Below the pieces are notes generated by a model. That model was not told the DNA's origin and did not search any database. It worked only from the letters and a program-made list of their open reading frames with translations. This document shows positions 3,313-5,874 of a DNA stretch of 33,231 nt, piece by piece. Source of the DNA: a virus. Its lineage: Duplodnaviria; Heunggongvirae; Uroviricota; Caudoviricetes. The stretch lies in the IMG/VR virus record IMGVR_UViG_2874956758_000003; one strand, given 5' to 3'. The translations under genes and the position numbers were made by a program. Position 1 is the first letter of the stretch, and every line of letters begins with the position of its first letter.

Positions 3313-3359
3313 TCACTGAGGTGTACTGGCAATAGCGGACACTACCATTTGTTCTTTTT

Positions 3360-4178
3360 TTAAGCAGCTATCTGATGATATTTTTCCCTGAAGGCTGCCG
3401 GGGAGATATTCCCCAGACGAGAGTGACGACGCTGACGATTGTAGAAAATCTCAATGTATTCCCGTATTACTGAGATGGCTTCATCCCGGTTATTAAAACG
3501 ATAGTGGCTCAGGCTCTCATTTTTCAGCGTTCCCCAGAAGCTTTCCATCGGAGCGTTGTCGTAACAGTTACCTTTACGCGACATTGATGTTTTCAGACCA
3601 GACTGCTCCTGTATGACCCGGTAATCGTATGCGCAGTACTGTGAACCTCGATCAGAGTGGTGGATTAGCCCGGCAGGTGGGCGCTGGCTCCTGAGCGCCA
3701 TAAACAGGGCTTTACCTGTCAGCTCTTTTGTCATGCGCTCTCCCATGGCGTAGCCGACAATTTCGCACGTATAAACATCTTTGACGCCGGCGAGATACAG
3801 CCATCCTTCCCGGGTGGCAACATACGTTATATCTGCGACCCAGACCTGATTAGGTGCTGTGGGCGTAAAGTTCTGATTCAGCAGATTCGGCGTAACCGGC
3901 AGATTGTGGTCTGAGTTTGTGGTCGCCCTGAATTTGCGTTTCTGCTTACAGTGCAGCCTTAGCTCCTTACGAAGACGTGCCAGTCGGTCACGACCAACGA
4001 TGATGCCATTCTCTGCCAGCTCCGTCTGGAGCCGCCGGGTTCCATATGTTTCGCGAGTGCGGATATGTGCCACCTTAATCTCCAGTTTTAGCCGCTCATC
4101 ACTTTGTTTTCTGTCTGAGGGTTCATGCTGTACCCAGTTGTAATAACCGCTCCTGGATACACCAAATACCTGACACAT
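3360..4178 (-). CDS. IS600 OrfB transposase (IS3-family DDE domain)
   Basis: 272-aa [19 protein letters not shown]...; contains the IS3-family motif HSDRGSQY with the catalytic Asp intact in this copy. Confidence 0.85.
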   Translation of the reverse strand: MCQVFGVSRSGYYNWVQHEPSDRKQSDERLKLEIKVAHIRTRETYGTRRLQTELAENGIIVGRDRLARLRKELRLHCKQKRKFRATTNSDHNLPVTPNLLNQNFTPTAPNQVWVADITYVATREGWLYLAGVKDVYTCEIVGYAMGERMTKELTGKALFMALRSQRPPAGLIHHSDRGSQYCAYDYRVIQEQSGLKTSMSRKGNCYDNAPMESFWGTLKNESLSHYRFNNRDEAISVIREYIEIFYNRQRRHSRLGNISPAAFREKYHQIAA

Positions 4179-4255
4179 CGCTTCAATGGGAAATTGTTGT
4201 CGCCATTGTTCGATTAACGCGTATTTTTCAGCGACTCCTGTGCAAAATACGCTGT

Positions 4256-5476
4256 TGTAGATTCAATCTGTCAATGCAACACCCCTTTCAATTATCTCTT
4301 TCGGTGTTTTGAACTTCAGTGTCTTTCTCGGTCTGTTGTTTAGCTGAGCAGCAACCAGATCTAGTTCATGTTGAGTATATTGGGCAAGACATGTCTTTTT
4401 AGGAAAGTACTGCCGAATTAGCCCATTTGTGTTCTCATTTGTTCCCCGCTGCCAAGGACTCTGAGGATCGCAGAAGTAAACTTTAACGCCGGTGCTGACA
4501 GTAAATTCTAGATGTCTGGCCAGTTCCATTCCTCTGTCCCATGTCAGTGATTTTCTGAGTTCTGACGGTAAACTCAGGAATTTGTCGGTAAGAGCCTGAT
4601 TTACTGAGACAGAATCTTTGCCCCTGAGTCTAAGGATGATCGTATAACGTGATTTTCGGTCTACAAGTGTGGCTATATGAGAGTTTTTTGTACCTGAGAC
4701 TAAATCGCCCTCCCAATGTCCCAGAGAGCGTCTGTTATCGATATTTCGGGAACGTTCGTGAATTGGTGTTCCGTTCACTATGTTAATCGTACCTCTTTCG
4801 CCTTTGCGGGTATGACGCCTGCCATGGCGAAGGCTATGCGACCGTCGCAGATGCTGTATATTCAGGTGGTGTAGCGCTTCACGGCTACGAAAGTACAGCG
4901 TTTTATAAATTGTCTCAGGTGATATTCGCAGCGTTTTTTGACGTGGTTTTGTTCGCCTTAACCATCCTGATATTTGCTCTGGAGACCATTTCATCTCCAG
5001 CTTTTCCAGAACAAGCTTTCGCAATGGTAAATTTTGATCCAGTAAGCACGGTTTTGGCCTTTTCGCCATTCTGTTGGCTCGGTTATTAGCATCAACAGCT
5101 TTGTAATAGCGTCTGCCCCGATTACGCTGAACTTCACGTGAGATCGTCGAAGGACTGCGATTCAGCGCAGTAGCTATCGCACGAATGCTCATTTTGGCTG
5201 ACAAACCAGCTCGTATCTCCTCGCGCTCAGACAGTGTCAGGTGAGCTACAGCCCGCTTACGCTCATGGGGTTTTATGCCGCCAGTATCCCTTAACATAGT
5301 GAAGATCGTTCCGGGTTTTGAACCCAGGATATTCGCTATTTCACTGAAGCCTGTTCCGTTCTTCCATAGTTCAAAAACAGAGGCTTTTTCCTCTGCTGTA
5401 AATGTTCGTCTCATTCAAAAAACCTCCGCAACCCCATGTTTTCACATAACTGTTGCGTTGACCAATTGAATCTACA
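4256..5476 (-). mobile_element. IS30, complete (1221 bp)
   Basis: Terminal inverted repeats TGTAGATTCAAT...ATTGAATCTACA; flanked by the dinucleotide AC on both sides inside IS600 orfA (IS30-type 2-bp duplication). Confidence 0.85.
4263..5414 (-). CDS. IS30 transposase, intact (383 aa)
   Basis: Full-length ORF MRRTFTAEEKASVFELWKNGTGFSEIANILG... ending inside the IS30 right inverted repeat. Confidence 0.9.
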   Translation of the reverse strand: MRRTFTAEEKASVFELWKNGTGFSEIANILGSKPGTIFTMLRDTGGIKPHERKRAVAHLTLSEREEIRAGLSAKMSIRAIATALNRSPSTISREVQRNRGRRYYKAVDANNRANRMAKRPKPCLLDQNLPLRKLVLEKLEMKWSPEQISGWLRRTKPRQKTLRISPETIYKTLYFRSREALHHLNIQHLRRSHSLRHGRRHTRKGERGTINIVNGTPIHERSRNIDNRRSLGHWEGDLVSGTKNSHIATLVDRKSRYTIILRLRGKDSVSVNQALTDKFLSLPSELRKSLTWDRGMELARHLEFTVSTGVKVYFCDPQSPWQRGTNENTNGLIRQYFPKKTCLAQYTQHELDLVAAQLNNRPRKTLKFKTPKEIIERGVALTD

Positions 5477-5739
5477 GTTGCTTTTTTTAATATATCTCGC
5501 TCAAGGCGAGCTTCATTTAACGCCTTACGCAGTTGCAGAATTTCAGATTCCAGTTCAGCCACCGTGCGGGAACCAGGAGTACCGAGCCCTTTTCTGGCGG
5601 CGGTAACCCATTGTCCTAAAGTGCCTTCAGGAAGGGATAATCGGGAAGCGCCTTCACTGATCGAAAGTTGATTTTCAAGAACCGTTCTGACAGCTTCGGC
5701 TTTGAACTCTTTAGAGTAACGTTGGGTTTTTCTGCTCAT
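5477..5739 (-). pseudogene. IS600 orfA, N-terminal 88 codons, interrupted by the IS30 insertion
   Basis: MSRKTQRYSKEFKAEAVRTVLENQLSISEG...ILKKAT then IS30. The remaining orfA codons (TAYFAQESLKNTR...) resume after IS30 at 4255 downward. Confidence 0.75.
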
Positions 5740-5874
5740 TATTAGCTCCTTCTGATGCCATTCTATTTCAGGAAGGAGTGTCCGTTAAACTCAGGCTACC
5801 TCACGTCACAGTCTACTGCACCACTTTCGGTATAACGGGGATTAATGATTTTTTTAATTTCCACGGTGCATTCC

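Follow-up and report, generated by a model that had tools for sequence, protein, structure and literature searches.

IS30 in the frameshift window of IS600: a recurrent target site and a family of composite elements in a Shigella-type chromosome

At positions 3317-5803 of a 33,231-nt stretch of DNA filed as IMG/VR virus record IMGVR_UViG_2874956758_000003 (the whole of which we call the window), the insertion sequence (IS) IS600 is interrupted in its orfA gene by a complete copy of a second insertion sequence, IS30. The reading that we favor, with a probability of roughly 0.7, is that IS30 inserted at a hot spot in the programmed-frameshift window of IS600 and that the resulting composites then spread in a Shigella-type lineage. 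The insertion site is one that IS30 has used repeatedly, in IS600 and in related elements, and the alleles carried by the three composite copies in the window are restricted to one lineage and linked to IS30 at every locus. What we infer is the sequence of events and how the composites spread, and for the spread the data fit mobilization in trans, recombination or gene conversion, and repeated insertion. The window belongs to a 4.88-Mb chromosome (CP026831.1), where it lies within a prophage remnant with ipaH and tail-fiber genes; a location on the virulence plasmid was ruled out, as the window is chromosomal and had no match in the plasmid collection. A sister assembly (JARFTJ010000001.1) has the same structure at 3317-5803 and is 99.8% identical over 13.3 kb.

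The nested element and its insertion site

The copy at 3317-5803 (copy 1) was delimited by direct reading and by blastn of reconstructed elements against the window, and its parts are as follows.

3317-5803, minus strand (running from 5803 to 3317): copy 1 of IS600, with IS30 nested in it
3317-4255, minus strand: IS600 3' part, comprising the rest of orfA, orfB (open reading frame, ORF, 3360-4178, 272 aa) and the right inverted repeat
4216-4255, minus strand: 3' portion of a predicted hairpin downstream of the IS600 slippery run, with IS30 at its base
4256-5476, minus strand, same orientation as IS600: complete IS30, 1221 bp
5477-5803, minus strand: IS600 5' part, comprising the left inverted repeat, orfA codons 1-87 and the A7 slippery run (5482-5488)

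The original prediction described an IS30 of 1221 bp nested in IS600 orfA with a 2-bp AC duplication and IS600 parts amounting to 1264 + 2 bp, and all of these particulars were borne out. The two IS600 parts add up to 939 + 327 = 1266 bp, and the duplication reads GT/GT on the plus strand, that is, AC/AC on the IS600 strand, the duplicated AC at 4254-4255 being the first two bases of the IS600 3' part. Removal of IS30 and 2 bp restores an element of 1264 bp with the ends TGAGGTAGCC... and ...GTACACCTCA, which has the length and terminal repeats (TGAGGT...) of IS600 and whose orfA reads ...ERDILKKAT/AYFAQ... across the join, with the predicted residues KKAT and AYFAQ on either side. The restored element shows 97.0-97.8% full-length identity to loci annotated as 'IS3-like element IS600 family transposase' on Shigella plasmids, and most of its divergence from annotated IS600 is contained in one 170-bp mosaic patch. 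The nested element in turn is recognizable as IS30 by its 1221 bp, its imperfect terminal inverted repeats (TGTAGATTCAAT...) and its one transposase gene, which is intact and encodes 383 aa (ORF 4263-5414). It differs mostly by 0-4 nt from the IS30 of other IS600::IS30 composites and of Escherichia coli K-12, by more from low-quality or degenerate IS30 copies, and by 76-122 nt from other isoforms.

Intact IS600 elements examined as controls are flanked by 3-bp target duplications (GTA, TAG and GTG). The flanks of copy 1 are ACG and GTG, and because it has no IS600 target duplication, copy 1, although full, has exchanged a flank. On its right-end side lies an ipaH-family E3 ligase gene (1576-3316, 578 aa; NCBIfam IpaH_Shig, 564 bits), which stops 4 bp short of the IS600 right end.

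IS30 is inserted 5 nt beyond the 3' end of the A7 run (TTA AAA AAA GCA AC/A). Restored IS600 reads TTA AAA AAA GCA in the orfA frame, orfA and orfB overlap at this slippery heptamer, and the -1 frame runs on into the OrfB N-terminus, so that the A7 run is the predicted -1 slippery site between the two genes. The restored 71-nt segment around the downstream hairpin has a predicted fold of -13.1 kcal/mol (z = -2.07); by analogy with the IS3 family in general, this hairpin would have a stimulatory role. The IS30 target is a near-palindrome, TTAAAAAAAGCA[AC]AGCGTATTTT, cut at its central AC. Written as AAAAAAAGCA[AC]AGCGTATTTT, the site is approximately symmetrical about AC, at 7 of 10 positions. 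A palindromic 24-bp consensus for IS30 targets was reportedly described by Olasz et al. in 1998.

With IS30 lying between orfB and the upstream orfA and slippery site, the composite, as judged from its reading frames, cannot make the IS600 OrfAB transposase, although both IS600 ends remain and its IS30 is intact. Its coding content consists of a truncated OrfA fused to 35 IS30-derived codons (OrfA'-IS30, ORF 5371-5739, 122 aa), the intact IS30 transposase and an orphan orfB. No outward promoter that could drive orfB was predicted at the junction of the IS30 right end with IS600, and a hybrid promoter across this junction was accordingly dropped from consideration.

A recurrent IS30 target in IS3-family elements

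IS30 inserts at the central 2 bp of nearly palindromic hot spots and, by the same reaction, also causes deletions and inversions through hot-spot targeting (PMC9333248). Comparison of sequences from many sources establishes the site in IS600 as such a recurrent target, with repeated independent insertion at the same position. For example, in E. coli O104:H4 (L062) a complete IS600 is interrupted by IS30 at this very AC and shows the 2-bp duplication too, but IS30 is in the opposite orientation. A total of 355 complete E. coli genomes have this inverse type of junction, and it could not have been created by homologous exchange between IS30 copies, because each IS30 end keeps its own type of flank. 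In addition, on plasmid pJNE132847_1 (L001) this site of the same IS600 variant is occupied by IS30H, which is about 10% divergent over its whole length, with 122 differences that reach to within 20-28 nt of both ends.

The target extends to relatives of IS600. The K-12 locus IS911A::IS30A (L010), a case of IS911 interrupted by IS30A (PMC9333248), reads TTAAAAAAGGCT[AC]CGCGCTC at the homologous site of IS911, a third IS3-family element (L012) with IS30 reads TTAAAAAAAGCC[GC]GGCGTAC, and IS911 is also found with IS30 reversed (L013). A scan across species, with the IS30 left end as query and one genome per species, returned 30 loci, 29 of them with a readable flank, and 19 of these 29 informative IS30 copies sit in slippery-site contexts, in both orientations. 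The genera represented in the scan include Kluyvera, Yersinia, Serratia, Erwinia, Buttiauxella, Rahnella and others, and isoforms of IS30 that are 6-10% divergent use the same slippery-site targets.

This specificity bears directly on how shared junctions are to be read. The original prediction argued from the identical IS30/IS600 junction at three loci to a single ancestral insertion, and that argument is invalid, given independent IS30 insertions at the same dinucleotide in E. coli O104:H4, on pJNE132847_1 (by IS30H), in IS911 and in the third element. As IS30 always takes this dinucleotide, identical junctions are expected for shared and independent events alike. An alignment of the three junctions had been proposed as the means of telling one insertion from several; they do lie at the same position, but for a site-specific element this agreement cannot separate one insertion from repeated ones.

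Other IS30 copies, at L011 (E. coli K-12, near fecE), L022 and L061, are flanked by two different IS3-family elements. Such mixed flanks include an IS600 5' part, IS30 and an inverted IS911 5' part, and likewise a 5' part of the third element, IS30 and an inverted IS600 5' part. IS30-occupied IS3-family elements evidently recombine with each other, as their sequences read.

Composite copies and their alleles

The IS30 right end followed by ACAGCGTATTTTGC is found at three places in the window (4256/4255, 12634/12635 and 29106/29107), the latter two being the sites at which the right-hand junction had been predicted to recur. The junctions fall within repeats of 968 nt (99%) and 1890+274 nt (98-100%), and because they lie inside such long, near-identical repeats, their sharing is not due to chance. 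The copies nevertheless differ among themselves at 10-38 positions. Blastn of the reconstructed elements against the window returned no IS600 or IS30 fragment beyond the three copies. The parts of copies 2 and 3 are listed below, where A-type denotes canonical IS600 sequence and B-type a diverged variant.

11275-12605, plus strand: IS2, 1331 bp, adjoining the IS30 stub of copy 2
12606-12634, plus strand: copy 2 IS30 right-end stub, 29 nt, 100% identical to IS30 nt 1193-1221
12635-13573, plus strand: copy 2 IS600 3' part, with orfB at 12712-13530; a mosaic of A-type and B-type
27885-29106, plus strand: copy 3 IS30, 1222 bp, with an extra C at 28159
29107-30045, plus strand: copy 3 IS600 3' part, with orfB at 29184-30002; canonical A-type

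As had been predicted, copies 2 and 3 keep only the 3' part of IS600 (the end of copy 3 lies at 30045, not 30046) and have decayed in different ways, copy 2 to a 29-nt IS30 stub next to IS2 and copy 3 to a frameshifted IS30 transposase. Both lack the IS600 5' end, so that a 3-bp duplication cannot be read there. The IS2 beside copy 2 has no 5-bp target duplication (CAGCC vs GGGTG), and its two flanks were therefore not originally contiguous; the truncation of copy 2 would thus be an IS2-associated deletion or recombination. In copy 3, the extra C at 28159 divides the transposase gene into ORFs of 93 and 309 aa. The left flank of its IS30 is not IS600 but ...TTTTAAGAAAGATGGT, which resembles a hot-spot half-site, and the absence of a 2-bp duplication (GT vs AC) points to a later rearrangement at this end, compatible with a deletion or inversion that IS30 made next to itself or with its recombination with a further IS30 copy. 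Matches of 14-21 nt between this flank and enterotoxigenic E. coli plasmids were rejected as shared context, being generic hot-spot-like sequence.

At least six IS30/IS600 junction loci are present in the source chromosome, and a seventh in the sister assembly. When OrfB alleles were traced by exact-protein look-ups, those of copies 1-3 were found only in these two assemblies, at 7 loci, all of them IS30-linked and none IS30-free. The allele of copy 1 occurs only at copy 1. That of copy 2 occurs at copy 2 and in a full composite of the sister assembly (L064), the 3' part of which is 100% identical to copy 2 while its 5' part and IS30 are 100% identical to copy 1. The allele of copy 3 is found at four loci of the source chromosome, each directly preceded by IS30: copy 3 itself and the following three.

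L068, source chromosome: full composite with target duplication AGC
L069, CP026831.1 1689082-1694900: IS30 between two inverted IS600 3' parts (...GCAAAATACGCTGT/IS30/ACAGCGTATTTTGC...)
L071, source chromosome: IS2, then IS30 lacking 5 nt, then the IS600 3' part

The left arm of L069 is only about 96% identical, and the locus looks like a recombinant of forward- and reverse-orientation IS30 insertions in IS600. That the private alleles are always linked to IS30 favors, short of proof, multiplication after IS30 had inserted. On the strength of these alleles and of L064, the earlier conclusion that the IS30 insertion preceded the spread of the composite is probably right for this lineage; the reason originally given for it, the identical junction, does not hold.

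The IS600 3' parts are themselves patchworks. Copy 1 is B-type at 3'-part positions 302-471 and copy 2 at 42-69 and 296-471, whereas copy 3 is A-type. The 170-bp B-type tract (window 3785-3954 and 12936-13105) has 31 differences from canonical IS600, a divergence of about 18%, and B-type IS600 matches pCP301 SF_p0116/0117 and pINV-Y394; by these comparisons, at least two diverged lineages have contributed to the mosaic that is IS600 in Shigella. Furthermore, the orthologous loci L067 and L068, as well as L066 and L071 (JARFTJ010000001.1 vs CP026831.1), differ by one and the same cluster of five single-nucleotide polymorphisms (SNPs) at composite positions 1563-1617, beside the junction, and these SNPs also distinguish copy 2 from copy 1. 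Because orthologues of the sister assemblies already differ by this tract, gene conversion among the copies is ongoing, on a very short time scale. For the same reason, SNP trees of the copies were rejected as a record of their duplication history.

Composites of this kind are widespread outside the source lineage. Among 5426 complete E. coli genomes, 1070 have the right junction, 1275 the left junction and 1638 the uninterrupted site, and the public collection has 14,496 indexed blocks with the exact 122-aa OrfA'-IS30 fusion ORF. The genome counts for the junctions (1070, 1275 and, for the inverse type, 355) were not taken as counts of events, since most forward cases represent one vertically inherited locus beside sat. 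Full 2487-bp composites with perfect 3-bp duplications are present at five further sites (GTT, at the sat locus, TTC, GAC, GGC and CGC), on E. coli plasmids, on chromosomes and on a metagenome contig, which with AGC in the source chromosome makes six. It had been proposed to compare the flanks of other composites for target duplications: the duplications are there, but each such composite fits IS30 insertion into a resident IS600 as well as transposition of the composite. At IS600 nt 980, the window copies carry the Shigella-type base, like intact Shigella IS600, whereas E. coli composites carry T.

The composites lie among many other mobile elements and phage genes. Two more copies of IS2 are present in the window, a simple insertion at 20723-22053 with the 5-bp duplication ACATC, and an inverted copy at 32314-33231 that is cut by the window end; three IS2 copies within 33 kb provide many substrates for rearrangement. 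The IS2 beside copy 2 directly abuts a 924-bp element (10355-11278) whose imperfect terminal inverted repeats are 29 bp long and which carries the gene of a 281-aa DDE_Tnp_1 transposase. This element probably belongs to the IS5 family (ISSfl7-like, according to the annotation of a related plasmid match). Between the 924-bp element and the prophage tail genes lies an IS66-family element (7311-10227) with three ORFs, including TnpB_IS66 and a 510-aa transposase. The prophage remnant with the ipaH gene also encodes a protein with a tail-fiber N-terminal domain (5875-7287) and a tail-fiber assembly protein. The IS clusters are flanked by a TrkH-family potassium transporter gene (18840-20315) and also by an ORF with a DnaT-like domain (29908-31200), next to lambda-P-like and DUF1627 genes of a phage replication module.

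Possible routes of spread and known parallels

On the reading that we favor, IS30 entered IS600 by its known hot-spot mode at the central AC of the near-palindrome, just 5 nt beyond the A7 run and at the base of the predicted hairpin, and thereby cut orfA and the slippery site off from orfB, with loss of OrfAB. The composites would most likely have multiplied after this insertion in the Shigella-type chromosome, perhaps through IS600 transposase supplied in trans by intact copies, or perhaps through homologous recombination or gene conversion between copies. The IS600 5' part would then have been lost from copy 2 by an IS2-associated rearrangement and from copy 3 by a rearrangement at the IS30 end (a deletion or inversion beside it, or recombination with a second IS30), and copy 1 would have lost its IS600 target duplication. 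Several observations weigh against this account. The lambda LHS hot spot (~33290), compared with the IS600 site, shows no convincing similarity or symmetry at the inferred position. Copies 2 and 3 have a 3-SNP private cluster in common, copies 1 and 2 a B-type patch, and the IS30s of copies 1 and 3 the allele A758; by such evidence the sharing of SNPs among the copies is incompatible, or reticulate, and gives no clean duplication tree. No copy in the window has an IS600 target duplication, so that transposition of the composite is not directly visible there, and the Shigella-type base at nt 980 fits independent insertions into local IS600 as well as it fits conversion.

Some of these points separate the favored reading from stricter versions of it. 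In the simplest version, IS30 inserted once in one IS600, and all three copies descend from a 2487-bp non-autonomous composite that was moved in trans and decayed locus by locus. This is possible, if on the whole unlikely. The full composites with perfect 3-bp duplications at six sites, one of them (AGC) in the same chromosome, speak for it, and intact IS600 controls show like duplications; it is also in keeping with lineage-private IS600 alleles found at 7 loci only in IS30-linked copies and with a minority allele, A758, common to the IS30s of copies 1 and 3. Against these stand the equal ability of IS30, on entering a resident IS600, to yield a duplication-flanked composite, the missing duplication at every window copy, the independent insertions proven elsewhere at this site, and the A-type sequence of copy 3 across the 31 SNPs at which copies 1 and 2 are B-type, which requires extra conversions. 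The opposite extreme, two or three independent IS30 insertions at the same dinucleotide each time, with shared SNPs brought in by later gene conversion, draws on the demonstrated hot-spot behavior, on the different mosaics of the three IS600 3' parts, on the local Shigella-type base in the IS600 parts and on active gene conversion. It nonetheless seems improbable, since near-saturating insertion would be needed for all 7 private-allele loci to be IS30-linked, and since L064 equals copy 1 in its 5' part and IS30 and copy 2 in its 3' part. The common orientation of 10 of the 11 distinct full-length composite loci examined (L053 and L062 included) also speaks against it, but is not significant under a moderate IS30 orientation bias; given a ratio of 10:5 at other IS3-family sites, 10 forward to 1 reverse in IS600 was set aside as evidence that is not decisive.

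Homologous recombination or gene conversion might also have done all of the work, with the composite converting resident IS600 elements by way of its IS600 arms and never transposing. The 5-SNP tract beside the junction in sister-assembly orthologues, the A/B-type mosaic tracts of copies 1 and 2 and the recombinant structures L011 (IS600 5', IS30, inverted IS911 5'), L061 and L069 are all of the kind that this would produce. We think it a poor prospect as the sole route, because composites at new sites would go unexplained unless IS600 was there first, and because conversion that copies a 1.2-kb heterology is in general less frequent than short-tract conversion; moreover, it fits the available data no differently from the other models. 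Finally, collapsed or mis-joined repeats might have placed the same junction at three loci. Apart from the general proneness of IS-rich regions to mis-assembly, nothing specific suggests this, and its probability is negligible: CP026831.1 and JARFTJ010000001.1 are independent assemblies that agree on copy 1, the copies differ from one another, and over 1000 complete E. coli genomes have this junction as well.

In a wider and more tentative view, toward which we lean rather less than halfway, the place where IS30 and its isoforms naturally land most often across Enterobacterales would be the programmed-frameshift window of IS3-family elements, IS911 and IS600 among them. The near-palindrome recognized by IS30 would consist of the slippery A-run together with the T-run of the downstream hairpin arm, and IS30 would land harmlessly while disrupting production of the IS3-family transposase; in Shigella, rich in IS600, the dead composites would still multiply by mobilization in trans or by gene conversion. 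The hot-spot behavior of IS30 is known, and its coincidence with the IS3-family frameshift window in many genera may be under-stated in the literature that we accessed. For biology at large the finding carries little weight, as it adds a further nested element to a Shigella chromosome already rich in insertion sequences. It does document the IS600 frameshift window as an IS30 target, and IS600 copies killed by IS30 as a multi-copy, actively converting family that persists in one Shigella lineage. It also holds a caution for the reading of genomes, in that, with site-specific transposable elements, identical junctions are no evidence of common descent. The composite family offers, in addition, a natural test case for movement in trans of an IS3-family element that lacks its own transposase.

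The behavior of IS30 in targeting hot spots (PMC9333248) has its counterpart in the IS600 site, with the same exact insertion at the central 2 bp of a near-palindrome and the same 2-bp duplication; the sequence of lambda LHS has no obvious similarity to it. Non-autonomous IS derivatives that retain just their ends and are mobilized in trans by IS3-family transposases offer another parallel, in that the composite keeps both IS600 ends, has no OrfAB and occurs as duplication-flanked copies at several sites. For the composite, movement in trans is one possible route, and the duplication-flanked copies are also explicable by IS30 entering resident IS600; IS3-family transposases, for their part, prefer to act in cis. 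The composite found in E. coli beside the sat/SPATE autotransporter gene, as well as on plasmids of E. coli and S. dysenteriae, is 2487 bp long, agrees with copy 1 in its junctions, its orientation and its 2-bp duplication, and is 98.1-98.6% identical to it. At the sat locus, which is mostly one vertically inherited locus, it is flanked by a 3-bp duplication (GTT/AAC) that copy 1 lacks, and it has A-type IS600 where copy 1 has the B-type patch and the E. coli-type base at nt 980.

The K-12 IS30D locus near fecE (L011) shares the left junction of copy 1 exactly (IS600 5' part, ...TTAAAAAAAGCAAC, then the IS30 left end), as do L022 and L044. On its right, however, the K-12 locus is flanked by an IS911 5' part in inverted orientation and has no IS600 3' part, and it is by virtue of this flank a recombinant of two IS30-occupied IS3-family elements. 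A further close likeness is to IS911A::IS30A of K-12 (insN / insI1 / insO, in the 6-min region), in which the homologous dinucleotide, immediately beyond the slippery A6G of IS911 on its 3' side, is occupied by IS30 in the same orientation as in copy 1 and with the same 2-bp AC duplication; there the host element is IS911, it is incomplete, and the arrangement is confined to a single locus. Hot-spot insertion of IS30 into an IS3-family element is thus an event of an already-known kind, as in K-12.

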